The position numbers were made by a program, and so were the translations under genes. 64,000 nucleotides of DNA from Chiloscyllium plagiosum (Eukaryota). Shown one piece after another: positions 594 through 64,000 of this stretch (positions are counted from its first letter, which is position 1; every line of letters starts with the position of its first letter). The notes beneath the pieces are model-generated. The model had not been told where the DNA came from. It saw only the letters and a program-made list of their open reading frames with translations, and did not search any database. Where the stretch lies: assembly GCF_004010195.1 (NCBI RefSeq), contig NC_057719.1:33903981-33967980 (forward strand). Reading direction: 5' to 3'.

Positions 594-810
594 GAAAGTG
601 AGGACTGCAGATGCTGGAGATCAGAGCTGAAAAATGTGTTGCTGGAAAGGCACAGCAGGTCAGGCAGCATCCAAGGAGCAGGAGAATCGATGTTTCGGGC
701 ATAAGCCCTTCTTCAGGACCTTAAGAAGGGCTTATGCCCGAAACGTCGATTCTCCTGCTCCTTGGATGCTGCCTGACCTGCTGTGCTTTTCCGGCAACAC
801 ATTTTTCAGC
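594..810. mobile_element. Palindromic Penelope-related mini-element, family A
   Basis: ~92-bp arms (625-716 vs 720-810) are reverse complements; flanked by imperfect direct repeat CACAGA(T/A)TGTTCA; hammerhead core at the centre. Confidence 0.85.
685..719 (-). ncRNA. Minimal hammerhead ribozyme motif (family A)
   Basis: Minus strand reads C-CUGAAGA-A-GGGC-UUAU-GCCC-GAAA-CAUC-GAUU: intact core, 4-bp helix II, AUC triplet. Confidence 0.65.
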
Positions 811-2931: not shown

Positions 2932-3358
2932 TTTTACCTCGTTAATTTTAACCCTACTGCGAATCCTCTTGCAAGGATGCCTGCCTTGAAGAAGTTAAGA
3001 AGTTTTCCTCCTCTCTCTACAAGAATCTCAGGGAGTCCCTCTCCCACTGCAACTCCCAGTTCATTTCCTCTGCCCTGAAGCTCTTCAACCATATCCTGAA
3101 GTCCACCTATCCACTCCACCCTCCTCCCTGACCTATCACCTTCATCCCCTCCCCCACTCACCTATTGTACTCAATGCCACTTTCTCCCCATCCCCACCCT
3201 CCTCTAGCTTATCTCTCCACGCTTCAGGCTCTCTGCCTTTATTACTGATGAAGGGCTTTTGCCCGAAACATCGATTTGTACTGCTCCTCGGATGCTGCCT
3301 GAACAGCTGTGCTCTTCCAGCACCACTAATCCAGAATCTGCAGTCATTGTTTTTACCT
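2932..3358 (+). mobile_element. Longer Penelope-related element (family A subtype) with pyrimidine-rich tract and hammerhead
   Basis: CTGATGAAGGGCTTTTGCCCGAAACATC at ~3245-3272; ends GCAGTCATTGTTTTTACCT, the same terminus as the 34115 and 60220 inserts; begins with TTTTACCT. Confidence 0.75.
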
Positions 3359-3728: not shown

Positions 3729-4179
3729 CTTCTTGGTGATTTCCTCCTGAATCAAAGTGCTCAGATAACTATATATTCTTCCTCAACCTCAGCAACAGCT
3801 CTGATCGAAAGTTCCCTGAGATGTTGGCAATTGATATAGATGTGATTACCTGGCATTGCAATATGCCCCACTAACTCGCAGACTGCAACTGTAGTACGTC
3901 ATTTGTACTGCCAACTTTATACTTTATTTTATTTACTTATTGAATTAGTTCATATATTTCATCAACTTGGCTTATGGTTCTTAGCCTCTTAATTAATTAT
4001 TTGATATCATTTAACTTACACATAGAGTGAATTATATGTCTACCTGTAACATGGCCTGTATAAGTGTTGGAGGCAAAAGCAACTCCTTCTAGCCCTTCTG
4101 CACTCAGTCCCCACTTGTACCAACTTCTAAAGTTGCACTGTTTTCTGCAACTACTCAGTGCTGACCACTCAGTTAAATG

Positions 4180-7284: not shown

Positions 7285-7485
7285 AGGAGAAAGTGAGGAC
7301 TCCAGATGCTGGAGATGAGAGTTGTAAGTGTGATGCTGGAAAAGCACAACAAATCAGGAAGCATCCATGGAGCAGGAGAATTGATGTTTCAGGCATCCTG
7401 ATGAAGAGCTAATGCCTGCAATGTTGATTCTCCTGCTCCTCAGATGCTGCCTGACCTGCTGTGCTTTTCAAGCACCACACTCTCG
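7285..7485. mobile_element. Palindromic Penelope-related mini-element, family A
   Basis: Inverted arms around CCTGATGAAG at ~7397; TSD AAGGGGAAGACT at 7270-7281 and 7486-7497. Confidence 0.85.
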
Positions 7486-8239: not shown

Positions 8240-8343
8240 AGGAGAAAGTGAGGTCTGCAGATGCTGGAGATCAGAGATGGAAATGTGTTGCTGGAAAAGC
8301 GCAGCAGGTCAGGCAGCATCTAGGGAACAGGAGAATCGACGTT
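8240..8343 (-). mobile_element. Penelope-related family A arm
   Basis: Near-identical to 594-693; stops at GAATCGACGTT, inside the hammerhead helix III/GAAA. Confidence 0.85.
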
Positions 8344-9067
8344 GGAGTGGGAGTCCAAAGACCTGCATATCCTGGGTGGAGTGGGAGTCCAAAGACCTGC
8401 ATATCCTGGGTGGAGTGGGAGTCCAAAGACCTGCATATCCTGGGTGGAGTGGGAGTCCAAAGACCTGCATATCCTGGGTGGAGTGGGAGTCCAAAGACCT
8501 GCATATCCTGGGTGGAGTGGGAGTCCAAAGACCTGCATATCCTGGGTGGAGTGGGAGTCCAAAGACCTGCATATCCTGGGTGGAGTGGGAGTCCAAAGAC
8601 CTGCATATCCTGGGTGGAGTGGGAGTCCAAAGACCTGCATATCCTGGGTGGAGTGGGAGTCCAAAGACCTGCATATCCTGGGTGGAGTGGGAGTCCAAAG
8701 ACCTGCATATCCTGGGTGGAGTGGGAGTCCAAAGACCTGCATATCCTGGGTGGAGTGGGAGTCCAAAGACCTGCATATCCTGGGTGGAGTGGGAGTCCAA
8801 AGACCTGCATATCCTGGGTGGAGTGGGAGTCCAAAGACCTGCATATCCTGGGTGGAGTGGGAGTCCAAAGACCTGCATATCCTGGGTGGAGTGGGAGTCC
8901 AAAGACCTGCATATCCTGGGTGGAGTGGGAGTCCAAAGACCTGCATATCCTGGGTGGAGTGGGAGTCCAAAGACCTGCATATCCTGGGTGGAGTGGGAGT
9001 CCAAAGACCTGGCATATCCTGGGTGGAGTGGGAGCCAAAGACCTGCATATCCTGGGTGGAGTGGGAG
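8343..9067. repeat. Minisatellite, 34-bp unit TGGAGTGGGAGTCCAAAGACCTGCATATCCTGGG, about 21 copies
   Basis: Units start at 8343, 8377 and so on; essentially identical except 1-bp indels in the last two units. Confidence 0.97.
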
Positions 9068-9149
9068 TGAGTTAGTACAGCCCTCTGTGCGTTACAATCT
9101 TAAGGTTTCTCAATTCACCAAATGGATCACTGGTCTGCCTCCGAATCAA

Positions 9150-14680: not shown

Positions 14681-14721
14681 GAGCTTTGACAAAGGGTCAG
14701 TTAGACTCGAAACATCAGCTC
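14681..14721 (+). ncRNA. Decayed minimal hammerhead motif (family D)
   Basis: GAGCT-TTGACAA-A-GGGTC-AGTTA-GACTC-GAAA-CATC-AGCTC: perfect 5-bp helix I, 5-bp helix II, core differs from CTGACGA by two transitions. Confidence 0.6.
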
Positions 14722-17236: not shown

Positions 17237-17650
17237 TTTGCATTTTGGGAAAGCAAATCTTAGCGGGAATTATACACTTAATGGCAAGGTCCTAGGGAGT
17301 GTTGCTGAACAAAGAGACCTTAGAGTGCAGATTAATAGCTCCTTGAAAGTGGAGCCGCAGGTAGATAGGATAGTGAAGAAGACATTTGATATGTTTTCCT
17401 CTATTGGTCAGAGTTTTGCCGACAGGAGTTGTGAGGTCATGTTGCGGCTGTACAAGACATTGGTTAGGCCACTGTTGGACTATTGTGTGCAATTCTGGTC
17501 TCCTTCCTATCGGAAAGATGTTGTGAAAGTTGAAAGAGTTCAGAAAAGATCTACAAGGATGTTGCCAGTGTTGGAGGATCTGAGCTACAGGGAGAGGCTG
17601 AACAGGCTGGGGCTGTTTTCCCTAGGAGGCTGAGGGATGACCTTATAGAG
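17237..17650 (+). mobile_element. CR1/HER1-type LINE ORF2 3' fragment
   Basis: ORF 17238-17633 HFGKAN...LYKTLVRPLLDYCVQFWSP...ERVQKR. Confidence 0.9.
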
Positions 17651-19190
17651 AGTGAAAAAGTTGCCACTTAGGTCTTTTTTTTATATCTTTCCCCTCTCAC
17701 TCAAAACCTATGCCCTCCAGTTCTGGACTCCCCCACTCCAGGAAAATACTTTGTCTATTTATCCTATCCATGCCCCTCATGATTTTATAAGTCTCTATAA
17801 GGTCACCCCTCAGCCTCCAATGCTCCAGGGAAAATAGCCCCAGCCTATTCAATCTATCCCTATAGCGCAAATCCTCCAACCCTGGCAACATTTTTGTAAA
17901 TCTTTTCTGAACCCTTTCAAGTTTCACAACATCTTTCCGATAGGAAGGAGACCAGAATTGCACACAATATTCCAACAGTGGCCTAACCAATGTCTTGTAC
18001 AGCCGCAACATGACCTCCCAACTCCTGTCGGCAAAACTCTGACCAATAGAGGAAAACATACCAAATGCCTTCTTCACTATCCTATCTACCTGCGGCACCA
18101 CTTTCAAGGAGCTATTAACCTGCACTCTAAGGTTTCTTTGTTCAGCAACACTCCCCAGGACCTTACCATTAAGTGTATAATTCCCACTAAGATTTGCTTT
18201 CCCAAAATGCAGCACCTCGCATTTATCTAAATTAAACTCCATCCACCACTTCTCAGCCCATTGGCCCATCTGATCAAAGTCTCATTGTAATCTGAGATAA
18301 CCTTCTTCGCTGTCCACTACACCTCCAATTTTGGTGTCATCAGCAAACTTACTAACTCTGCCTCTTAAATCATTTATATAAATAATGAAAAGTAGAGGGC
18401 TCAGCACCGATCTTTGTGGCACTCCACTGGTCACAGGCCTCCAGTCTGAAAAACAACCCTCCACCATCACCCTCTGTCTTCTACCTTTGAGCCAGTTCTG
18501 TATCCAAATGGCTAGTTCTCCCTGTATTCATGAAATCTAATGTTGCTCACCAGTCTCCCATGGGAACCTTGTCAAATGCCTTACTGAAGTCCATATGTAT
18601 AACATCTACTGCTCTACCTTCATCAAACCTCTTTTATCCACTTTTATGCGTTTCAAGAAATCCAGCACTTCTTCCTATGTAGTATGGGCATTTTTCAACA
18701 TGTCACCATCTATTTCCCTACATTCTATATATTCCATGTCCTATTGCACACTAAATACTGGTGCAAAATACTTGTTTATTATCTGCCCTATCTCCTGTGG
18801 CTCCACACAAAAGCTGCCTTGCTGATCTTTGACGGCCCTATTTTCTCCCTCTTTATCCTTTTGTCCTTAATGTACTTGTAAAAATACTTCTGATTCTCCT
18901 TAACTCCATTTGTCAAAGCTATCTCATGTCCCTTTTCTTCTCTCTTAAGTATATGTCTATTGCCTTTATACTCTTCTAAGGATTCACTCAATCTATCCTG
19001 TCAATACCTTCATTTTCTGAACCAAACCCTCAATTTCTTTAGTCATCCAGCATTCCTTATACCTACCAGCCTTTCCTTCTACCTTAACAGGAATAGACTT
19101 TCTCTGGACTCTTGTTATCTCATTTCTGAAGGCTTCCCATTTTCCAGCTGTGCCTTTACCTGAGAATATCTGTGCCCAATCAGCTTTTGT
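17651..19190 (-). mobile_element. CR1/HER1-type LINE, inverted, internally deleted and 3'-truncated
   Basis: Minus ORFs: [53 protein letters not shown]. Confidence 0.9.
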
Positions 19191-20072
19191 GTATTTGGAT
19201 ATGCAAGGACTGGTTAGGGATAGTCAGCATGGCTTTGTATATGGGAAATCATATGTCACTAAGAAGTAACAAAGAGGATTGAAGAAGGCTGAGCAGTGGT
19301 CATGATCTATATGGACTATAATAAGGCCTTCAACAAGGTTCCCCATGGGAGACTGGTTAGCAAGGTTAGATCACATGGAGTACAGGGTGAACTAGCCATT
19401 TGGTACAGAACCGGCTCAAAGGTAGAAGACAGAAGGTGGTAGTGGGGGGGTTGTTTTTCAGACTGGAGGCCTGTGATCAGCGGTGTGTCACAAGGATTGG
19501 TGTTGGGTCCTCTGTTTTCTCTCATTTATATAAAGGATTTGGATGTGAACATAGGAGGTAAAGTTGGTAAGTTTGCTGATGACATCAAAATTGGAGGTGT
19601 AGTAGACAGCAAAGAAGGATACTTCAGAGTACAATGGGATCTTGATCAGATGGGCCAATGGGCAAAGGAGTGGCAGATAAAGTTTAATTTGAATAAATGT
19701 GAGATGCTGCTTTATAGAAAGGCAAATCAGGGCAGGACTTATACATTTAATGGTAAGGTCCTGGGGAGTGTTGTTGAACAAAAAAAATGAATCCCAGGTA
19801 GACAGGATATTGAAGAAGGCATTTGGTAAGCTTGTCTTTACTGGTCAGTGCATTGAGTATAGGAGTTGGGAGGTCATGTTGCAGCTGTACAGGACATTGG
19901 TTAGGCCACCTTTGGAATATTGAATTCAATTACAGTCTCTCTGCTAATGGGAAGGATATTGTGAAACTTGAAAGGGCTCAGAAAAGAATTTCATGAATGT
20001 TACCAGGGTTGGAGAGTTTGAGATATAGGGAGAGGCTGAACAGGCCGGGGCTGTTTCCCTGGAGCGTCGGAG
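19190..20072 (+). mobile_element. CR1/HER1-type LINE RT fragment
   Basis: DSQHGF, KAFNKVPHGRL, SGVSQGLVLGPLF, KFADDIK, LYRTLVRP motifs. Confidence 0.9.
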
Positions 20073-20309
20073 GCCATTAACCCAAACCTTGAAGTTCTTT
20101 TTGTCTTCCCAGTTACTGCCTGAATGGTTGAATCAGGGATTCTACAGCCCCTCTGAATGTGGGCTGGCGGGCTGTTAGAATGCTGAGGAAATGCATTAGG
20201 AGAAAAGAACATTGTTATGCAACAACTTCAGGACAATTCAAGAGGCAAGAATGCCAATAATTTGGCTGTATACTGAATAGATATGGGCTACACGTTAAAA
20301 TCATCAAGT

Positions 20310-20823: not shown

Positions 20824-21030
20824 TGGAGAAATTGAGATCTGCAGATGCTGGAGATCAGAGTCGAAGTGTGTGGTGCTGGAAAACACAGCCTTTCAAGCAG
20901 TATGTGAGGAGCAGGAGAATCAATGTTTTGGGCATTAGCCCTTCATCAGGAAGGGCTGCTGCTGAAACATCGACTCTCCTGCTCCTCAGATGCTGCCTGA
21001 CTGGCTGTACTTTTCCAGCACCACACTCTT
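20824..21030. mobile_element. Palindromic Penelope-related mini-element, family A
   Basis: Inverted arms around CTTCATCAGGAAGGGC; degenerate TSD TCCA(A/C)TCCTT. Confidence 0.8.
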
Positions 21031-22266
21031 CCACTCCTTCCCTTAGCACGCTCAGCAGTTTGTTCATTCACCTCTGACACGAAAGTCCCCTCCATGATCA
21101 CACTGTCTGCTCACATGCATTTAGCATCCACATTTGGTCCCAGCCACTGCACTTTCAGCGTGTTGCTAATATGTTGTTCAGCATTTTCTGTTTTTATTTC
21201 ATCAAAACTATTATGGGCTCTAGTCTAGTCTATCAAAGGAAAAATATTAGTTGTGACACCTAAGCTTGAATAATTACTTTTCTGTATTTACTTGATATTT
21301 TTAGCTTTTGATTCATACCAATGTTATTTACCTTTTCTTGACTTGCTATGTCTTTCAATAAGACATCTCTTTAGTTATAAGTCTCCTGTAAGGGACCTTG
21401 TCAAATACTTTTCCAAAGTCAAGGTATACTTTCTGTTTCCTTCATCCAGCAACACTATTAGTTTCCCACAAATTTCAATTAATTCATTGGACATGACTTT
21501 CCCTTCAAGAATCTAGTTTAGATTTTGTTTATGGCCTTCCGTGTTGATAAATGATCATGAAATGTTACATTGCAGCACATTCTTGTATCTTTTGTATTAT
21601 TGATGTTAAGTCAACTGTCCCATAATTCTTAGGGTCACTTTGTCCTTTGGTGAAGATTGAAATCATATTCATTTGTTTTCAATGCTCTTGCTATTATGTG
21701 TGGTACAAGCACTCAACGAACAAGCTTCACCTTCCTTAACTCCCTTGAGCTCCTTGTAACTGACGATCAAAACAAACTCTTCAAAGGATTTCTGCATAAG
21801 TAAGATTTGTGGGAACTGAGAGCAAGTTTGGCTTTCAAGCAGACAAGGAGTATTGAATGGATTAACTTCTTGATCATCGTACAGTAGCAATTGAGTGGTC
21901 ATCCAGCATATATAGGAGAATTAGCCTCATGGGGTGTGCTTATTTGGGCAGCAAGCCAGAAGAGTAGAAAGTACCAATGTTTCCAGAAGCAGGGAGGATC
22001 CCACTGCATTCCATATTTAACTGAAAGGCTACTGTACACCTGGACAAGCATTGGCAGTATAATGGCCCAGGCACAAAGACATACTGTTCATGACACATAG
22101 TTGGCATGGCTGTCACTCCCTCACCCAAACACCCTCTTTGTCTAATCCTATTTACTGTGTAACCACCTATCCTTAGCTACATCTCTCAGTCACCAATACT
22201 CTGTCGACTAGAAACCCACATCTTGTCATTGCCAGGACGTGAGCATCACAGGCAGGCAAGAAATCA

Positions 22267-22459
22267 GACACGTTTGTAAACATTAAAAACACGGAAATAG
22301 AAAAACCACACCGGATCATCAACGCCACACTCACAGGAATCCAATTCACGAGAGAAGAAGAAAAGGACAACCAACTCCCATTCCTAGACGTGATGGTACA
22401 GAGAACACCAAACGGAGAATTCACCACAAAGGTATACAGGAAAGCCACACACACAGACC
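22267..22459 (+). pseudogene. Penelope-like reverse transcriptase fragment
   Basis: Translates to DTFV...IQFTREEEKDNQLPFLDVMV...TKVYRKATHTD, typical of PLE RT after the YxDD motif. Confidence 0.9.
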
Positions 22460-22669
22460 TTATCAGGGTACATTTGTACATCTGCTTTAACAAAAAGTTA
22501 AATGATGAAGTATGATACTTTACAACACCATTGTAGGGAAGGCAACACTTGCAGGTTTCATTAAAGGGATTGATGGTAGTCCAGCAATGATGGGCAAAGT
22601 ACTTAGCTGGTGATCATTTAATGAGGTTGAAACCCAGTGAGATAAATCAATAAACGATATAAATGGAAC

Positions 22670-23072
22670 ACGAAATGACACGACCAGCTATCCTTAGTAG
22701 CCACACATGCAGACAACAAGCAACATGAATTTGACTGGGACAACACTGCTATCATAGGGCAAGCCAGACAGAGGACAGCCAGGGAATTCCTAGAGGCATG
22801 GCATTCATCCACAAACTCCATCAACAAACACATCGACCTGGACCCAATATACCAACCACTACAGCGGACAGCTGAAACTGACAACCGGAAGCGGCAGGGA
22901 CAGACCACTATGAACACCGGAGGAAACATCAAAGAAGCGCTTTGCAGGAGGCTCCCAAGCACTGATGATGTCGCCTAGCCAGGGGGCAAAACGTTTGCAA
23001 CAAAAACTTCCAGCTCGGCGAACAGAACCACAACAACGAACACCCGAGCTACAAATCTTCGCACAAACTTTG
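22670..23072 (+). mobile_element. Penelope 3' end: GIY-YIG endonuclease C-terminus plus pLTR (family C)
   Basis: Translates to HDQLSLVATHADNKQHEFDWDNTAIIGQARQRTAREFLEAWHS..SINKHIDL; followed by a hammerhead at 22959-22998. Confidence 0.85.
22959..22998 (+). ncRNA. Minimal hammerhead motif (family C), G12 mutated to A
   Basis: GCA-CTGATGA-T-GTCGCCT-AGCC-AGGGGGC-AAAA-CGTT-TGC: helix I GCA/TGC, helix II with one mismatch, ACGT palindrome, GUU triplet. Confidence 0.65.
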
Positions 23073-26745: not shown

Positions 26746-27795
26746 TAACGCAGTCTATGCTTGTCAGGTGATTGTAACAGCTACTTTAAATCCATTTTAA
26801 ATCATGAAAATGTCAGGTATTAAAGTCAAGTAATGAAAATTGAATATTGGCAGTCAATTTTCAGTATAAGGGTAACAACAGTTTGGACTTAAGTTTCTGT
26901 ATTAAAATGTCAGCCATTTTGACAGCTCAAATATGAGCATTTTGGGATTAAAAAAAAGGATTTTTAAATTTGTAACAAGCTCATGCCTTTATTTGACACG
27001 GCAAATTAGTTAAATAAATACTTGAAAGACCAAATTTGACTGGGTTAAAAGAAAGGAACAGGGGAATAGGACGAATTAGATAGCTCTTTGAAAGAGTTAG
27101 TATTCTTCATTTGTGATATAACTTTCCATAATTTTATAAATTCATAGTGAAAGGGACGGAATTAAAACTGGCTGAGCTTGTTGATATCAGTGCTCTTTTG
27201 CTACGGGTTATTATTAACTTTGTCCTGATACATTCAGATAGAATATCATAGATTTAACTTAGCTTTCAAAGATTTCAAGAGACCAAAATAAAAAAGGAGG
27301 AACAATCTCTTTGACTTATATAGAGGAGAGGAATAGTAGCTTGTGAGTTGCAATGATAACTTGGCCATTTCACTGAGCATGAAATTGAACACCTTTCACA
27401 GAAGACACATTCATTCAATCCTTTATCACCCAGAAATGAATTCAATTAGAAATCTGTTAACTCAACATCACACTAAACAAATTTTACTCACTTTTTCTAT
27501 TCAATTTTCATTATCTACATAAGAGATGTAAATATACATGAATAATTGAATGATAATATGGATTTCCCAAGCCATCTACAGAATTTATTAATTTGCAGTA
27601 CTGAATAAGACAAATCTTTAATAATTGAGAAATACTCGGTTGAGTTTCTGTATAAAACATCCCAAGTTGTTTTTTATGTTTAGTAAGCTTGTATTATCAT
27701 TGTTAGAGCATTGTCTGAAGTATTGTTATAATGATTAACTTTAAACCTGATCTGACTGTTTAAGGTCAGTGTTCAAAGTGAACACATTCAGGTAA

Positions 27796-28294
27796 AAAGT
27801 TAAAAATCACATAACACCAGGTTATAGTCCAACAGATTTAATTGGAAGCACTCTAGCTTTCGGAGCGACGGTCCTTCATCAGGTGATTGTGGAAATGTGT
27901 AAAACTTTCATGTGTAAATCACAAAACCCTTTTTTTTAAAGTTGCATTCTCGGGTTAGCTGTTAACAATGGTGATAGCTAGACAATATGTTAATGCAACT
28001 TTTAAAAAAAGGGTTTTGTGATTTACACATGAAAGAAGTGAAACTATCACTGTATTCTAACAGATGAAAGGTTTAACAGACAATCAATTTTTCAATGTAT
28101 AATTTCAGTTACATCACACTGCAAATTTTTGCTATAAATTCTGTGTTACGATCGAGCCCTCCACAATCACCTGATGAAGGAGCGTCGCTCCGAAAGCTAG
28201 TGTGCTTCCAATTAAACCTGTTGGACTATAACCTGGTGTTGTGTGATTTTTAACTTTGTACACCCCAGTCCAACACCAGCATCTCCAAATCATG
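27796..28294. mobile_element. Fold-back Penelope-related element, family B, about 500 bp
   Basis: Outer arms 27796-27893 vs 28161-28257, inner arms ~27905-27948 vs ~27992-28035; perfect 12-bp TSD ACATTCAGGTAA at 27784-27795 and 28295-28306. Confidence 0.9.
28168..28202 (+). ncRNA. Intact minimal type I hammerhead ribozyme motif (family B)
   Basis: CAC-CTGATGA-A-GGAGC-GTC-GCTCC-GAAA-GCTA-GTG: helix I CAC/GTG, 5-bp helix II, AGCT palindrome, CUA triplet with predicted cut after 28199. Confidence 0.8.
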
Positions 28295-29539
28295 ACATTC
28301 AGGTAATTACAGCTATCTGGAGGGACCACAATCTGACAATGGGTGCTGTCTGACTTAGTCTTATTGCACTTCATATTGCCAGTATTATTTGATGAGGCAC
28401 AAAGACTACAGGGGCAGTTCCTGGGAGACTATCAAGACCAACAGCTGGTTTATTGTAGTTGAAGCTGAGTCCAATTCAGCATCGATACATGCCTTCATCA
28501 AAGGTTATAATGCCACTTGGTATTCCCCAAACTATTGTTGAACCCTTTTTATTCCACCAAAAACTCCCACAGATTTAATGCTCCAAAGATATCTGTCATC
28601 AGAGTTCATGAGAGCACACTTTTCTTTAAATCCTTGATTATGCTTCATAATGTGACATTAGTTTTGAATGTTTAAGAGCTGTCTTCAAAAGAAAATAATA
28701 AACTCAGGCCTGCTGTGAATCACAAGTGGTTGCAGTTAGGAATTATAACAAGGACATTTTAAATTCTTTTTTTATTGCGGCTTTCATTCTTATATTTTAA
28801 CAAGAGCATTGGGGAATTCTCACCCAGCAGAAGACAGCTGAAGTGGTTCGAGTGAAGTATTCACCATAGCACAATTTCAGAAATGTTTAAATAGTTAGTT
28901 CCTGAAATGTAAAGGCTAGCAATTTAATACCGGACTGATGGAACAGAACATCTGCTCATATAATGAACCCAGTGCTGTCTTATGGGGTCAACAAATTTAA
29001 ACAGGAGCAGAGCATCACACGGCATGCCCTCTTTTCAGACCATTTCCCCCACACCTTACAATTTAAGCTTTTTTTAAAAAAAAGTTGTAACTTGTTTGGA
29101 AGTGCAATGATATCAAAGCATCTCAGATAAAGGGAAACCAGTCATTAATCTCCCTTTCGTCTTAGACTTAAGGATTTAGGAAGATGCAGTAGGAGATAGA
29201 GAAGGACATATTGTGCAATAGTGTAAATTGATGGATAGAAAAAGGATTGGATTGGAGAAAAAAATAGAAAAGTTAAGATTTATAAGTTTTTTTATGTTTT
29301 AATGTTTCCAACAATATTTTACACCACACTTTAAAGTTCTGGTCTAGATATTGATGGAAACATAAATCTCACATTAGAAGGAGTACTTATATTGTTAAGT
29401 AATACTGAAATGATTTATGTACTAATAATTGTGAGTGCCATTAAACTTGCTATCATACATTTGGAACCAAATTCTGGGTCAATGCTGGGGTGACATAAAT
29501 CAAGTACGTTGAGGGTAGAGGAGCGTGGTAAGAGAAAGT

Positions 29540-32900: not shown

Positions 32901-33564
32901 ATAAGGAGACTTTGGACAAGTGCAGAATTATTTGTATTGTTTGAAGGATGAAGATTTTCAGGGAAGTGAGTAGACTTGTTGTTTTCCACAGAACAGAGAC
33001 ATCTAACAGGAGATTGAGAGTGGTGTTGAAAATCATGAAGGGTTTAGATGGAGTAAATAAATAAAAGTGGTTCTTGTGGCTAAAGAATCAAAAACCAGAA
33101 GGGGTCACATTTAAGATGACTGGGGGAAAGAAACAGAAACCATGTGAAAAAAAATGCTTTTATCTAATGACTAGCTTAGATTTGAAATGCACTGACTGAT
33201 AGCTGGATAGTTGAAGATTCGATAGTTGCCTTCAAAAAGGGATTGGAAAATGTTTGATGGATAAAAAAATCAAAAGATTATGCGATAAGAGTAGGTGAGT
33301 GATGCTAACTGCTTTGGTCTTCAAAAAATCAATCTCAATGGACCAAAAAGTCTCTTTTACACTGTGCTGTTCTGTGCTTCTATTGTAAGAGATGCATGGG
33401 ACTGCATCAAATAGATTAAGTAAATGCACAATGGAAGAATATCCTGGCGTTGTTAAATGATATAGAGTGGATGAAACACATGTGGAGCATCTACAAAACA
33501 TACATGTTACAATACAGAATGTAGCCCAACTGTCAGGATAATTGTATGTTAAAGATCTCATTGA

Positions 33565-34750
33565 ATACAGGGAGAATTAACCATTTGGATACAGAACTGG
33601 CTCAAAGGTAGAAGACAGAGAATGGTGGTAGAGGATTGTTTTTCAGACTAGAGGCCTGTGACCAGTGGAGTCCCATAAGGATCAGTGCTGAGTCCACTGC
33701 CTTTCATCATTTATATAAATGACTTGATGCAAGTATAAGAGGTATAGTTAGTAAGTTTGCAGATGACACCAAAATTGGAGGTGTAGTGGACAGCAAAGAA
33801 GGTTATCTCAGATTACAATGGGATCTTGATCAGATGGGCCAATGGGCTGAGAAGTGGCAGACGGAGTTTAATTTAGATAAATGTGAGGTGCTGCATTTTG
33901 GGAAACAAATCTTAGCAGGACTTATACACTTAATGGTAAGGTCCTAGGGAGTGTTGCTGAACAAAGAGACCTTGGAGTGCAGGTTCATAGTTCCTTGAAA
34001 TTAGAGTTGCAGGTAAATAGGATAGTGAAGAAGGCGTTTGATATGCTTTCCTTTCTTGGTCAGAGTATTGAGTACAGAAGTTGGGAGGTCATGTTGCGGC
34101 TGCTCAGGACATTGAGGTAAAAACAATGACTGTAGATGCTGGAAACCAGATTCTGGATTAGTGGTGCTGGAAGAGCACAGCAGTTCAGGCAGCATCCAAG
34201 GAGCTTCGAAATCGATGTTTCGAGGACATTGGTTAGGCCACTTTTGGAATATTGTATGCAATTCTGGTCTCCTTCCTCTTGAAAGTTGTGAAACTTGAAA
34301 GGGTTCAGAAAAGATTTACAAGAATGTTTTCAGGGTTGGAGGATCTGAGCTATCGGGAGAGGCTGAACAGGCTGGGGCTGTTTTCGCTGGAGCGTTGGAG
34401 GCTGAGGTGTGACCTTATAGAAGTTTATAAAATCATGAGAAGGATGGAGAGGAAAAATAGACGAAGCCTTTTCCCCAGGGTGGGGGAGTCCAGAACTAGA
34501 GGGCATAGGTTTAGGGTGAGAGGGGAAAGATATAAAAGAGAACTAAGGGGCAACCTTTTCACACAGAGGTTGGTAAGTGTATGGAATGAGCTGCCAGAGG
34601 AAGTGGTGGAGGCTGGTACAATTGCAACATTTAATAGGCATCTGGATGGTATATGAATAGGAAGGGTTTGGTGGGATATGGGCTGGGTGCTGGCAAGTGG
34701 GACTAGATTAGGTTGTAATATCTGGTTGGCATGGACAAGTTGGACTGAAC
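33565..34750 (+). mobile_element. CR1/HER1-type LINE 3' portion
   Basis: WIQNWL, SGVP.GSVL, KFADDTK, KLERVQKRFTRM, RTRGH, WNELP; 3'UTR. Confidence 0.9.
34115..34222 (-). mobile_element. 108-bp Penelope-related insertion (family A subtype) within CR1
   Basis: Perfect 9-bp TSD AGGACATTG at 34106-34114 and 34223-34231. Confidence 0.9.
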
Positions 34751-35689
34751 AATAAAGTTATTTGTGCATTCAAAAATAAGTTGCATAATTAATGAAATCT
34801 CTCGAGCTGAATGATTGATTTAATGGGGAGTGCTACAATGTGGTGTTGACATTAGTTGACTATTGTCAAACGTAGTTCCTTGAAATAATGTCATAACATT
34901 CATAATATCATACTTGTCCAAAGACCACAATCAATGCATAGCTTACACATAAGCATCAGATATTGTGAAAATTGCAGAAATATATGATGACTGCAAGTCT
35001 TAAGACACAATTATTGCCCTTCAAACCAATTTTTAACATTATTTCATTTTTAATTCTGTCCAAATTAAAGGTTCTTCCTATTATTCCATCCTATAGAATT
35101 TAATTGAGTACAGTAAAATAACTTTATTTGACAATTTTATTCAATGGTAATCAATGGTAAACTTCATGGGATAACTTATTGTAAAATAAAAGTAAGTCAT
35201 TTTCAAGATAAGTATACACTACCTTTTGTGAATGGTGTCTTAATTTGTTTTGGGGGTCAGGAAATAAGGAAGTTAGATAGAGCCTATCGTATTGATGGAA
35301 CTAATAACTTGTTGGGAAAAAATTTAAATGCTCAAATGATGGTTCGCAGGGAATTGGAATTATCTGATGAGACAGCATTATCACTTTTTGTTTTGTATTT
35401 GCATGAGAATATTTGAAATGTTATAGTAATGTACACCAAGGACTGCAAAACAAAAAGTGAGAGCTCCAAGAAGAAAATATTCAGGTTACCAAATTTTCTT
35501 TGGTGGTTGTCAAAACATAATTCATGGAATTCCATACCCTGGTAGCTAAAGTTCCTCAGTGAAACATTCTTGATTTCATCATATTCCAAAATTTATATCA
35601 ATGTCCTTTCCTGCATCATAAAATATCCAGCTCCATTCAGAGTTTCTCGAACTATATATCACAGCTACAGAAAAACCTGGATAACATCC

Positions 35690-39117: not shown

Positions 39118-39240
39118 GTCACAACCACCTGATGAAGGAGCAGCGCTCCGAAAGTTGGTGCTTCCAATTAAATCTGTTGGACTATAACCTGGTGTTTTGT
39201 GATTTTTAACTTTGTACACCCCAGTCCAACACCAGCATCG
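39118..39240 (+). mobile_element. Penelope-related mini-element, family B monomer
   Basis: CACCTGATGAAGGAGCAGCGCTCCGAAAGTTGGTG followed by a body matching 28200-28282. Confidence 0.85.
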
Positions 39241-48792: not shown

Positions 48793-49292
48793 NNNNNNNN
48801 NNNNNNNNNNNNNNNNNNNNNNNNNNNNNNNNNNNNNNNNNNNNNNNNNNNNNNNNNNNNNNNNNNNNNNNNNNNNNNNNNNNNNNNNNNNNNNNNNNNN
48901 NNNNNNNNNNNNNNNNNNNNNNNNNNNNNNNNNNNNNNNNNNNNNNNNNNNNNNNNNNNNNNNNNNNNNNNNNNNNNNNNNNNNNNNNNNNNNNNNNNNN
49001 NNNNNNNNNNNNNNNNNNNNNNNNNNNNNNNNNNNNNNNNNNNNNNNNNNNNNNNNNNNNNNNNNNNNNNNNNNNNNNNNNNNNNNNNNNNNNNNNNNNN
49101 NNNNNNNNNNNNNNNNNNNNNNNNNNNNNNNNNNNNNNNNNNNNNNNNNNNNNNNNNNNNNNNNNNNNNNNNNNNNNNNNNNNNNNNNNNNNNNNNNNNN
49201 NNNNNNNNNNNNNNNNNNNNNNNNNNNNNNNNNNNNNNNNNNNNNNNNNNNNNNNNNNNNNNNNNNNNNNNNNNNNNNNNNNNNNNNNNNNN
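48793..49292. other. Assembly gap (500 N)
   Basis: Run of exactly 500 N, suggesting an arbitrary-size scaffold join. Confidence 0.99.
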
Positions 49293-51479: not shown

Positions 51480-52272
51480 GCAGTTACTAGCGGTGTTCCG
51501 CAAGGATCTGTTTTGGGACCATTGCTATTTGTCATTTTTATAAATGACCTGGAGGAGGGGCTAGAAGGTTGGATGAGCAAATTTGCGGATGATACGAAAG
51601 TCGGTGGAGTTGTTGACAGTGAGGAAGGATGTGTCAGGTTACAATGGGATATAGATAAGCTGCAGAGCTGGGCAGAAAGGTAGCAAATGGAGTTCAATGT
51701 GGGTAAGTGTGAGGTGATTCACTTTGGTATGAGTAACAAAAAGATGGGGTACTGGGCTAATGATCGGATACTTGGNNNNNNNNNNNNNNNNNNNNNNNNN
51801 NNNNNNNNNNNNNNNNNNGGTGCAGAGGAGGTTTACCTGGATGTTGCCTGGTATGGTAGGAAGATCGTGTGAGGAAAGGCTGAGGCACTTGGGGTTGTTT
51901 TCATTGGAGAAAAGAAGGTTTAGGGGTGACTTGATAGAGGTGTACAAGATGATTAGGGGTTTAGATAGGGTTGACCATGAGAACCTTTTTCCACGTATGG
52001 AGTCAGCTATTACGAGGGGGCATAGTTTTAAATTAAGGGGTGGTAGGTATAGGACAGATGTTAGGCGTAGATTCTTTACTCAGCGAGTCGCGAGTTCATG
52101 GAATGCCCTGCCAGTAGCAGTGGTGGACTCGCCCTCTTTATGGGCATTTAAATGGGCATTGGATAGGCATATGGAGGATAGTGGGCTAGTGTAGGTTAGG
52201 TGGGCTTGGATCGGCGCAACAATGAGGGCCAAAGGGCCTGTACTGCGATGTATTTTTCTATGTTCTATGTTC
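51480..52272 (+). mobile_element. Younger CR1 3' portion (distinct subfamily), contains a 43-N gap at 51776-51818
   Basis: [43 protein letters not shown]; (CTATGTT)n tail; CpGs retained. Confidence 0.9.
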
Positions 52273-52656
52273 TATTATTAACAAAGAAATAGCAGTATAT
52301 GCAGAAAAGAGTAACCCAGTCAAACAGTGTCAACACGATTTGTGAAAGGGAACTCATTGTCAACAAATTTGTTACTCTATGACAAGCAGAGTTGACAAAA
52401 GTGAACCCATAAATGTACTGTACTTAGATTTCCAAAAGGCATTTGATAAGATGGTTTAATTCTATTCAATAGGAGCTCACAGTCCTATTGTATTAGCATG
52501 GATTGAGGATTGCTTAAAACAGTATACAGAGAGAGTCTGGATTCATAGTTTTTTCTCACGTCAGAAAGACTGAACTATTGGAATCCCACAAGACACACAC
52601 TGTAGGGATTCTATTCCGTTCTATTCTATGACCTCAACTGTTTACTATCCATATTG

Positions 52657-52863
52657 ATGAGTGTGGTGCTGGAAAAGCACAGCAATTCAGGCAGCATCTG
52701 AGGAGCAGGAAAATGGAAATTTTGGGCATAAGCCCTTCCTGATAAAGGGCTTATTTCCAAAAACATCGATTCTGCTGCTCCTCGGATGCTGGCTGACCTG
52801 CTGTGCTTTTCCAGCACCACACTCTCAACTCTGATCTCAAGTATCACAGTCCTCACTATCTCC
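52657..52863. mobile_element. Palindromic family A element
   Basis: Inverted arms around CCCTTCCTGATAAAGGGC; approximate TSD CATATT(G/A)ATGA. Confidence 0.8.
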
Positions 52864-59483: not shown

Positions 59484-62295
59484 CATAGAGTCATAGAGAT
59501 GTACAGCATGGAAGCAGATTCTTCAGTCCAACCCATCCATGCCGACCCGATATCACAACCCAATCTAGTCCCACTTGCCAGCACCCGGCCCATATCTCTC
59601 TAAACCCTTCCTATTCATAAACCCATCCAAATGCCTCTTAAATGTTGCAATTGTACCAGCCTCCACCACTTCCTCTGGCAGCTCATTCCTTTTACAAAAC
59701 ACCCTCTACGTGAAAAGGTTGCCCCTTAGGTCCCTTTTATATCTTACCCCACTCACCCTAAATCTATGCCCTCTAGTTCTGGACTCCCTACCCGAGGAAA
59801 AAGACTTTGTCTATTTATCCTATCCATGCCCCTCATGATTTTGTAAACCCTCAGCCTCCGATGCTCCAGGGAAACAGCCCCACCCTGTTCAGCCTCTCCC
59901 TATAGCTCAGATCCTCCAACCCTGGCATCATCCTTGTAAATCTTTTCTGAACCTTTTCAAGTTTCACAACGTCTTTCTGATAGGAAGGAGACCAGAATTG
60001 CACGCAATATTCCAATAGTGGCCTAACCAATGTCCTGTACAGCCGCAACATGACCTCCCAACTCCTGTACTCAATACTCTGGCCAATAAAAGAAAGCATA
60101 TCAAACGCCTTCTTTACTATCCTACCTACCTGCGACTCCATGTTCAAGGAGCTATGAACCTGCACTCCAAGGTCTCTTTGTTCAGCAACACTCCCTAGGA
60201 CCTTACCATTAAGTGAATAAGGTAAAACCAAGGGCTGCAGATGCTGGAAACCAGATTCTAGATTAGAATGGTGCTGGAAAAGCATAGCAGGTTAGGCAGC
60301 ATCCGACGAGCAGGAAAATCGACGTTTCAGGCAAGAGCCTTTCATTTGGAATAGAGTGAATAAGTCCTGCTAAGATTTGCTTTCCCAAAATACAGCACCT
60401 TGCATTTATATGAATTAAACTCCATCTGCCACTTCTCAGCCCATTGGCCCATCTGGTCAAGATCTTGTTCTAATCTGAGGTAACCCTCTTCGCTGTCCAC
60501 TACACCTCCAATTTTGGTGTCATCTACAAACTTACTAACTGTACCTCTTATACTTGCATCCAAATCATTTAGGTAAATGACAAAAAAGTAGAGGACCCAG
60601 CACCAATCCTTGTGGCACTCCACTGGTCATAAGCCTCCAGTCTGAAAAACAACCACCACCACCACCCTCTATCTTCTACCTTTCGAGCCAGTTCTGTATC
60701 CAACTGGCTAGTTCTCCCTGTATTCCATGAGATCTAACCTTGCTAATCAGTCTCCCATGGGGAACCTTGTCGAATGCCTTACTGAAATCCATATAGATCA
60801 CATCTACTGCTCTGCCCTCATCAATCTTCTTTGTTACTTCTTCAAAAAACTCAATCAAGTTTGTGAGACATGATTTCCCACACACAAAGCCATGTTGACT
60901 ATCCCGAATCAGTCCTTGCCTTTCCAAATACATGTACATCCTGTCCCTCAGGATTCCCTCCAACAACTTGCCCACCAACGGGGTCAGGCTTACCGGTCTA
61001 TTGTTCCCTGGCTTGTCTTTACTGCCCTTCTTAAACAGAGGCACCACGTTTGCCAACCTCCAGTCTTCTGGCATCTCACCTGTGACTATTAATGATACAA
61101 ATATCTCAGCAAGAGGCCCAGCAATAACTTCTCTGGCTTCCCACAGAGTTCTCGGGTACATCTGATCAGTTCCTGGGGATTTATCCACTTTAACCATTTC
61201 AAGACATCCAGCACTTCCTCCTCTGTAATCTGGACTTTTGCAAGATTCACCATCTATTTCCCTACAGTCTATATCTTCCATATCCTTTTCCACAGTAAAT
61301 ACTGATGCAAAATATTCATTTAGTATCTCCCCCATTTTCTGTGCCTCCACACAAAGGCTACCTTGCTGATCTTTGAGGGACCCTATTCTCTCCTAGTTGC
61401 CCTTTTGTCCTTAATATATTTGTAAAACCCCTTTGGATTCTCCTTAATTCTATTTGCCAAAGCTATCTCATGTCCCCTTTTTGCCCTCCTGATCTCCCTC
61501 TTAAGTATACTCCTACTGCCTTTATACTCTTCTAAGGATTCACTTGATCTATCCTGTCTATACCTTACATATGCTTCCTTCTTTTTCTTAACCAAACCCT
61601 CAATTTCTTTAATCATCCAGAATTTCCTATACCTACCAGCCTTTTCTTTCACCCTAACAGGAATATACTTTCTCTGAATTCTCGTTATCTCATTTCTGAA
61701 GGTTTCCCATTTTTCAGCTGTCCCTTTACCTGCCAACATTTGTCCCCAATCCGCTTTTCAAAGTTCTTGCCTAATACAGTCAAAATTGGCCTTTCTTCAA
61801 TTTAGAACTTCAACTTTTAGATCTGGTCTATCCTTTTCCATCACTATTTTAAATCTAATATAATTATGGTCACTGGCCCCAAAGTGCTTCCCTACTGAGA
61901 CCTCAGTCACCTGCCCTGCCTTACTTCCCAAGAGTAGGTCAAGTTTTGCACCTTCTTTAGTCGGTACATCCACATACTGAATCAGAAAATTTCCTTTTAC
62001 ACACTTAACAAATTCCTCTCCATCTCAACCCTTAACACTATGGCAGTCCCAGTCTATGTTTGGAAAGTTAAAATCCCCTACCATAACCACCCTATTATTC
62101 TTACAGATAGCTGAGATCTCCTTACAAATTTGTTTCTCAATTTCCCTCTGACTATTAGGGGGACTAGAATACAATCCTAATAAGGTAATCATCCCTTTCT
62201 TATTTCTCAGTTCCACCCAAGTAACTTCCCTGGATGTATTTCCAGGAATATCCTCCCTCAGCACAGCTGTAATGCTATCCCTTATCAAAAATGCC
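59484..62295 (-). mobile_element. Longest CR1/HER1-type LINE in the window: most of ORF2, frameshifted and 5'-truncated
   Basis: Collinear minus ORFs: VMVGDFNFPNIDW, FYKYIK, LNEYFASVFT, DWRLANVVPLFKKG, DSQHGF, YMDFSKAFDKVPH, KFVDDTK, LVRPLLEY; (CTATGACT)n tail. Confidence 0.95.
60220..60354 (-). mobile_element. 135-bp Penelope-related insertion (family A subtype) within CR1
   Basis: Duplication AGTGAATAAG at 60212-60221 and 60355-60364. Confidence 0.88.
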
Positions 62296-63736: not shown

Positions 63737-63941
63737 AGGAGAAAGTGAGGACTGCAAATGCTGGAGGTCAGAGCTGAAAAAATGTGTTGCTGGAAAAGTG
63801 CAGCAGGTCAGGCAGCGTCCAAGGAGCAGGAGAATCGACGACGTTTCGGGCATAAGAAGGGCTTATGCCCAAAACATCGATTCTCCAGCTCCTTGGATGC
63901 TGCCTGACCTGCTAGGCTTTTCCAGCAACACATTTTTCAGC
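63737..63941. mobile_element. Palindromic family A element
   Basis: Near-perfect inverted arms; TSD TCAAAATA(T/C)AAAAG at 63725-63738 and 63942-63955. Confidence 0.9.
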
Positions 63942-64000
63942 TCAAAATACAAAAGATCAATTTTGAGAATGAATTCAACTTCTAGTCATGAGCATCAATG

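Follow-up and report, generated by a model that had tools for sequence, protein, structure and literature searches.

The window analysed here, a stretch of 64,000 nucleotides (G000:C10:33903981-33967980) of the 3.56-Gb Chiloscyllium plagiosum genome, carries a hammerhead ribozyme motif with an intact core, which raises the question of whether this ribozyme acts where it now lies or is a remnant of a mobile element and, in the latter case, what it did for that element.

A hammerhead in a truncated insertion

The motif at 28168-28202 reads CAC CUGAUGA A GGAGC guc GCUCC GAA AGCU A GUG, with A28199 as position 17, in agreement, base by base, with the layout that the first-pass annotation gave for its family B (helix I CAC/GTG, helix II GGAGC/GCTCC). 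It is the single strict match returned by a minimal-hammerhead descriptor scan of the window, and 12 Markov shuffles returned none. Coordinates are collected in Table 1; offsets marked + or - are counted from core nucleotide 3 of the ribozyme (28171 in this copy).

Table 1. Features of the window, with coordinates
Feature	Position	Strand	Remarks
Family B minimal type I hammerhead, intact	28168..28202	+	core C3 at 28171; cleavage predicted 3' of A28199
Whole insertion: head-to-head inverted, 5'-truncated Neptune-type PLE copy	27796..28294	.	499 bp
Direct arm	27992..28294	+	-180 to about +123, includes tail
Inverted arm	27796..27893	-	about +87 to -11; second hammerhead with helix II mismatch GGACC
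Inverted arm, continuation	27905..27991	-	-136 to -223
Left copy of target-site duplication	27784..27795	+	12 bp
Right copy of target-site duplication	28295..28306	+	12 bp
TATAAA, putative TATA box	28133..28138	+	30 nt upstream of 5'-end pile-up; function inferred
Initiator-like site	28160..28165	+	A28163 (-8), inferred RNA start
ATTAAA polyadenylation signal	28211..28216	+	other subfamilies have AATAAA; poly(A) reads terminate at equivalents of 28228 and 28231
ATG starting the ORF in the full-length element; tail end	28292..28294	+	
Family A hammerhead, within inverted pair 626-810	685..719	-	helix III decayed (ACAU)
Family A hammerhead	3245..3272	+	decayed (ACAU, helix I broken)
Family D hammerhead, U3-A8 core	14682..14720	+	helix III decayed (ACAU); begins a copy of about 134 bp
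Family C hammerhead	22959..22998	+	G12 lost; overlaps end of Poseidon-like ORF remnant (about 22280-22975)
Second family B copy	39126..39158	+	mutations in the palindrome and at position 17 (AGUU G)

The locus is best explained, with good confidence, as a minimal hammerhead in the 3' pseudo-LTR (pLTR) of a dead, truncated Neptune-type Penelope-like element (PLE) insertion, a reading that takes in the RNA-start and reverse transcriptase (RT) run-off steps proposed below. The direct arm is 95.7% identical over 301 nt to the 3' pLTR of a full-length element (L171), and the 12-bp repeats that bound the insertion are perfect. Hallmarks of endonuclease-containing PLEs are present, namely pLTRs, 5' truncation, an inverted 5' copy and a tail of 30-40 bp; the target-site duplication, the inverted arm and the two 3' ends about 35 nt apart match PLEs as described (PMC8557442, and the accessible portion of PMC11167929). 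An inverted partner is found at 18 of 30 family B loci, four of the pairs being one insertion seen twice.

Elsewhere, the window contains LINE-like fragments with RT and endonuclease at 17239-20074, 33553-34753 and 59518-61758, in inverted and nested pieces, which we take to be CR1-like. At a separate locus (L099:528-1580), a 351-aa frame resembles, by eye, the RT of LTR retrotransposons.

Four hammerhead families

Exact-pattern searches of the genome gave 48,611 matches for family A, 13,810 for B, 8,184 for C and 913 for D, with 0 for every reversed control; these counts are lower bounds, and helix I is not intact in all matches. The downstream 27-mer of family B has 39,167 genome matches (flanking N ignored). 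A 464-kb sample held 32 core-plus-helix-II matches, 21 of them with a palindromic helix III and H17, compared with 2-8 and 0-1, respectively, in five shuffles; an extra nucleotide separating 9 from 10.1 was present in 31 of the 32. The extra nucleotide and the 4-nt palindromic helix III, both of which the annotation had ascribed to all families, do occur in each of the eight family-typical copies tabulated from the four families, as does the G10.1-C11.1 pair; helix II opens with G-C in all eight, and helix III is either ACGU or AGCU.

Helices I and II differ between the families yet stay paired, apart from one U-U (helix I, A1 and A2) and one A-G (helix II, family C), and the covariation that had been claimed is real. 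Other particulars needed correction. Helix II of family A had been given rightly, but both copies named for it carry ACAU owing to CpG decay, and the one at 3245 has lost its first helix I pair; family C does have GAAA, but its copy at 22959 reads AAAA. The statement that all families share CUGANGA fails for family D: among the first 100 matches listed, the core reads UUGACAA in 98 and CUGACAA in the other 2, with G8 in none. An explanation of this core by decay was rejected. This core has a compensatory U3-A8 pair, like that published for Schistosoma Cercyon (PMC4209133), and so strengthens the argument for the fold while contradicting the claim. The outer G-C pair that had been assigned to helix I of family D is supplied by the flank. 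With U3-A8 counted, the core CUGANGA and GAAA...UH are intact in the family B copy and in the family-typical copies of A, C and D; the window copies of the latter three are decayed.

Per-site differences, calculated for the copies spanning the motif (102 of 121 for B, 114 of 183 for A), peak at loop II (0.23-0.42 in B, up to 0.47 in A) and at N7 (0.52 in A), followed by CpG sites, and at core positions outside CpG they are mostly below 0.05, a low value that is biased by the loci having partly been picked for an intact motif. The master lineages have retained the hammerhead fold while the loops changed, and the pattern of variation points to selection on master elements rather than on copies. 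Other helix II variants (L095:187, 3138 and 7565; L100:2365; L116:69; L098:5477) indicate more than four families. A 34-bp tandem array (21 copies, 99% matches) at 8343-9068 of the window starts inside a family A copy.

Source elements and classification

PLE origin and high copy number, both already proposed in the first-pass annotation along with the presence of several such families, are established at the sequence level by the pattern counts with their zero controls and by ties to ORFs encoding RT and endonuclease; family D is linked to an ORF through a single locus, L189, and through its downstream resemblance to A. The full-length L171 has a 3.4-kb pLTR-ORF-pLTR layout, with same-strand family B hammerheads at 3835 and 7273 (3,438 nt apart) flanking a broken ORF with an RT match, whose ATG is at +121; the ribozyme stands about 120 nt upstream of that ATG. 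The family B ORF was reached through a protein piece from a chimeric locus, and 23 of the 30 loci found by the family B RT piece have the 3' end seen in the window downstream on the same strand. In Pfam, this ORF matches RVT_1 (E 6.4e-8); the search gave 0 families for its endonuclease, which is recognisable by eye only. The family A ORF matches RVT_1 (E 1.3e-8) and GIY-YIG (E 2.9e-4, narrowly short of the curated cut-off), and in L093 a 649-aa frame with RT and GIY-YIG is followed 160 nt on by a family A hammerhead. When longer proteins were searched at E 0.001 with a 98-aa ORF piece, a weak test, no relatives emerged.

The A and B proteins are 34% identical. Both translations contain the CX2-5CxxC linker given for Neptune and Nematis (PMC8557442), and the two families would accordingly be Neptune-type PLEs or, by the linker, of Neptune or Nematis type. 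In family C, the ORF ends inside its own hammerhead, and the motif lies in the pLTR in the window, L179 and L182; the linker is absent from the family C piece of L179, the one piece that covers the linker region, which makes this family Poseidon-like.

Loci L061-L084 (e.g., G000:C1:2452700-2454060) represent a young chimeric non-autonomous element that combines a decayed family-A-type ORF with a family B 3' pLTR; its 24 copies, spread over many contigs, are identical over the 98-aa piece, and their DNA is mostly 98-99.6% identical. L080 and L065 have family B ORF pieces upstream as well. The family B end is present in sequencing runs of four organism labels (A-D) and is not limited to one species. 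Assembly gaps (N) lie at 48793-49292 and 51776-51818 of the window and are frequent inside long PLE copies.

Predicted cleavage of the motif

According to the literature, two such motifs would pair via the AGCU palindrome, forming helix III, and cut after A17; cleavage would be weak and probably aided by the element's protein. A Schistosoma minimal hammerhead showed no activity as a monomer and low activity as a dimer (PMC4209133), and the accessible part of the anole PLE study (PMC11167929) describes a hammerhead that cleaved only with the element's protein and was dispensable for insertion in vitro. The only near partner of 28168-28202 is on the opposite strand, and the nearest same-strand motif, at 39129, is mutated; the predicted fold of RNA reading through the whole insertion is a long hairpin (-259 kcal/mol) that buries the motif. 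In view of the low published activities, the opposite-strand partner and the hairpin, the earlier expectation that the motif should cleave when dimerised is probably too strong, and the copy most likely does nothing where it lies. Its monomer fold energy is no better than that of shuffles (z -1.3), and in predicted cofolding of two copies it is helix II, rather than helix III, that pairs between the strands. The Rfam covariance models gave no hammerhead match, either at the gathering threshold or at E up to 10; two weak Rfam miRNA matches were dismissed as chance.

Where copies begin and end

The 5' ends of family A, B and D copies pile up at the 5' edge of the ribozyme, not at its cleavage site. 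Family A was sampled as 118 A-type copies from 775 kb not selected for A, by using 17 A references from several subfamilies. The map records alignment starts, leaves aside copies that score below 50 or lie close to a locus end or an N run, and includes a few related-family copies and at least one duplicate B row. Among the 74 A copies that reach +5, 42 stop at -6 to +5 (modes -3 and -4), compared with 8 of 82 in the interval from +6 to +17 (Fisher p = 1.8e-10 against the neighbouring 12 nt). Genome-wide, the 48,611 matches of the A pattern fall to 32,220 when four bases are added and to 23,539 with two further pyrimidines, and the same bases are kept in 32/36 and 32/32 UTR-bearing A copies. 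For family B, the pattern reaching -8 has 10,754 matches, of which 6,965 (65%) are left when it is extended to -11 (59/64 in UTR-holding copies), 16 of 30 loci start, by eye, between -11 and -1, and in a small unbiased set 7 of the 16 copies reaching -1 stop within 12 nt. All nine D copies start at -4 to -6, and none of nine family C copies (one interrupted by N) shows the pile-up. Splicing was rejected as its cause, as the copies have no upstream exon in common.

The 3' ends of A and B copies cluster near +85-93 and +120-126, which corresponds to the tail attributed to two internal RT starts in PMC11167929. In L189:1166-1540 and L122:730-830, internal ORF or tail sequence is fused directly to -4 and -7, joints at the ribozyme 5' edge of the kind expected from a template jump. 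In the window, the family A palindromes at 626-810, 7327-7481, 20858-21036, 52654-52828 and 63771-63943 have their centres close to this edge.

Putative promoter motifs, polyadenylation and RNA reads

TATAAA is found at -36 to -40 in 66 of the 82 B copies with UTR, and, among 36 A copies, 30 have TTAT(C/T) at -33 to -36; both AT-rich motifs lie about 30 nt upstream of the pile-up A. A TATA spacing of ~30 nt and a pyrimidine-A initiator context are standard Pol II features.

RNA was followed in run X19, poly(A) single-cell RNA from a related organism (label C), of which about 2% was read; run X20 had 0 reads on L171. In X19, 3,129 reads map to L171:3548-6620, concentrated on the pLTR and with the strand bias expected for sense RNA; such reads may be host transcripts that end in dispersed copies. 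Poly(A) junctions occur at +57 (361 reads) and +60 (446 reads), 12-15 nt after ATTAAA, where the reference has no A-run, which places poly(A) addition in this organism about 30 nt past the cleavage site. The reads span the cleavage site with no pile-up of ends listed there, from a library that would lose the 30-nt product, and loose read ends at L171:3866 were rejected as evidence of cleavage because they reflect a 2-nt subfamily indel. Joints from the ORF start back to -8 were seen once in X19 (4 reads) and once in the X1 contigs. A further 93 X19 reads fuse unrelated sequence to -3 (L171:3832 and 3892-3895), which suggests a host transcript ending in a short family B copy.

The poly(A) signal at this site was found only in family B; in A3, an AATAAA can be picked out by eye near +76. 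A 6-bp hairpin predicted immediately after the ribozyme, at 28208-28226 of the window, contains the family B signal and, more speculatively, might make this signal less used within the 5' repeat.

A possible hammerhead-sized R region and its alternatives

In LTR retroelements, a short R repeat lies between the transcription start and the poly(A) site, priming takes place just downstream, and strong-stop cDNA runs off at the RNA 5' end. A comparable scheme can be drawn for these PLEs. The pLTR promoter would start RNA a few bases upstream of helix I, and reverse transcription would start internally, at +87 or +120. Given that RNA also ends at +57/+60, RT could start only near the 5' end of a unit transcript, so that the cDNA would run off after 95-130 nt; on uncleaved RNA, it would often stop at the RNA 5' end, leaving ribozyme-headed copies of about 95-135 bp. 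The start-to-poly(A) stretch, most of which is ribozyme, would be repeated at both RNA ends and hence resemble an R region, placing the hammerhead in a short terminal repeat of the mRNA, with strong-stop-like cDNAs made from uncleaved RNA. It is tentatively suggested, as a plausible reading rather than a probable one, that the pLTR acts like a true LTR with an R region little more than the hammerhead (start at -8, poly(A) at +57/+60, RT start at +87/+120), whose strong-stop cDNA would integrate or jump to the 3' repeat or an internal site; paired hammerheads could hold the RNA ends together for the jump, cleavage being secondary. Long copies could equally derive from tandem-copy read-through or from circles.

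The model of Cervera and de la Pena, in which two hammerheads of one transcript dimerise and cut out a unit-length RNA whose ligated circle serves as the template, would make good sense of a fold conserved and covarying between families down to the U3-A8 pair, of the two same-strand hammerheads in the full element, and of long copies ending at +87/+120, past the poly(A) site. A circle, however, has no end at -4/-8, yet copies stop there; only 5 of the 118 A-type copies start at +28 to +31, in the cleavage-site region, some of these being from other families; and the X19 reads cross the cut site, in a library blind to the 30-nt product. As the account of these copies, it is considered unlikely. 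Equally doubtful is an origin of the 5' pile-up at the DNA or alignment level, whether through microhomology where inverted arms join, through cuts made by the endonuclease within the pLTR, or through subfamilies whose other UTRs escaped sampling. Microhomology (GCCC-TTC/A-TTC) is indeed seen at many -3 junctions in inverted A copies, another, smaller peak covers +18 to +23 (17 of the 118 copies) and is due partly to microhomology and other families, and the anole enzyme prefers ATT, according to the accessible text of PMC11167929, with ATT at -4 in A. The pile-up, however, is also present in copies with unrelated flanks, recurs in three families at sites of differing sequence (ATTC, ACAA, AGCT), lies about 30 nt past an AT-rich motif in both A and B, and was obtained for A with references from more than one subfamily.

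That the named copy is itself a working ribozyme or regulatory device at its locus is very improbable: TATAAA, the initiator-like site, the intact core and the poly(A) signal have all been kept, but exact copies number at least 13,810, this one included, and it has no compatible same-strand partner in the window and a motif buried in the read-through hairpin.

Relation to known elements

The class, features and high copy numbers of PLE minimal hammerheads have been published (PMC4209133), reports of the kind going back to 2014; the families described here are members of it, and the motif itself is ordinary. In common with the published examples, they are type I, with the extra nucleotide 9/10.1, G10.1-C11.1 and palindromic 15.2-16.2, and show many solo copies, opposite-strand pairs and the U3-A8 variant; helix II is shorter here, at 4-5 bp in A, B and D. 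The exact-pattern sum is about 71,500, compared with about 9,000 in Xenopus and 4,000 in the coelacanth obtained by a different method. Shark terms were not found in the searchable supplements of the published PLE hammerhead survey.

The anole Poseidon element PAc (Frangieh et al. 2024, PMC11167929), in the portion of the account available, is alike in several respects: the hammerhead sits where pLTR and ORF meet, the tail arises from two internal RT starts, the main template is uncleaved RNA, and no reads end at the cut site. It differs in that A and B have the CX2-5CxxC linker and that the ATG of B is placed where the tail ends instead of within helix II; in that portion, multi-copy transcripts are assumed and cDNA run-off at the 5' end of the RNA is not described. 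Judging by the available sections of the respective papers, Drosophila virilis Penelope (Schostak et al. 2008, PMC2377424) and the Adineta PLEs (PMC3846280) likewise have an initiator promoter in the pLTR, TATA- or Inr-like motifs and head-to-head inverted pLTRs with tail and target-site duplication; D. virilis Penelope has a 46-nt exon and an intron before the ribozyme, whereas nothing common lies upstream of helix I here. Non-LTR retrozymes (bioRxiv 10.64898/2026.07.22.740005), as far as the accessible text goes, are similarly non-autonomous hammerhead-bearing pLTR derivatives, reported from one chondrichthyan, but are defined as tandem arrays, whereas the named copy is a dispersed inverted insertion, and the window contains no tandem units each with a complete hammerhead. 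With the R region and strong-stop DNA of LTR retroelements, the likeness would be one of working, should the proposed scheme hold, and not of membership: PLEs are target-primed by a GIY-YIG endonuclease and have no tRNA primer or integrase. The 5' pile-up is unreported for PLEs in the openly readable portion of the literature on start sites, strong-stop DNA and strand transfer.

Implications

The role of the hammerhead in PLEs has been stated to be unclear (PMC8557442). The tens of thousands of genome copies are a record of where PLE cDNAs began and ended, one that speaks for uncleaved RNA and for an RNA end located at the first bases of the ribozyme. If the R-region scheme is true, integration of strong-stop cDNA would explain the tens of thousands of short ribozyme-headed copies. 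Family B may, in addition, furnish many poly(A) sites to host transcripts.
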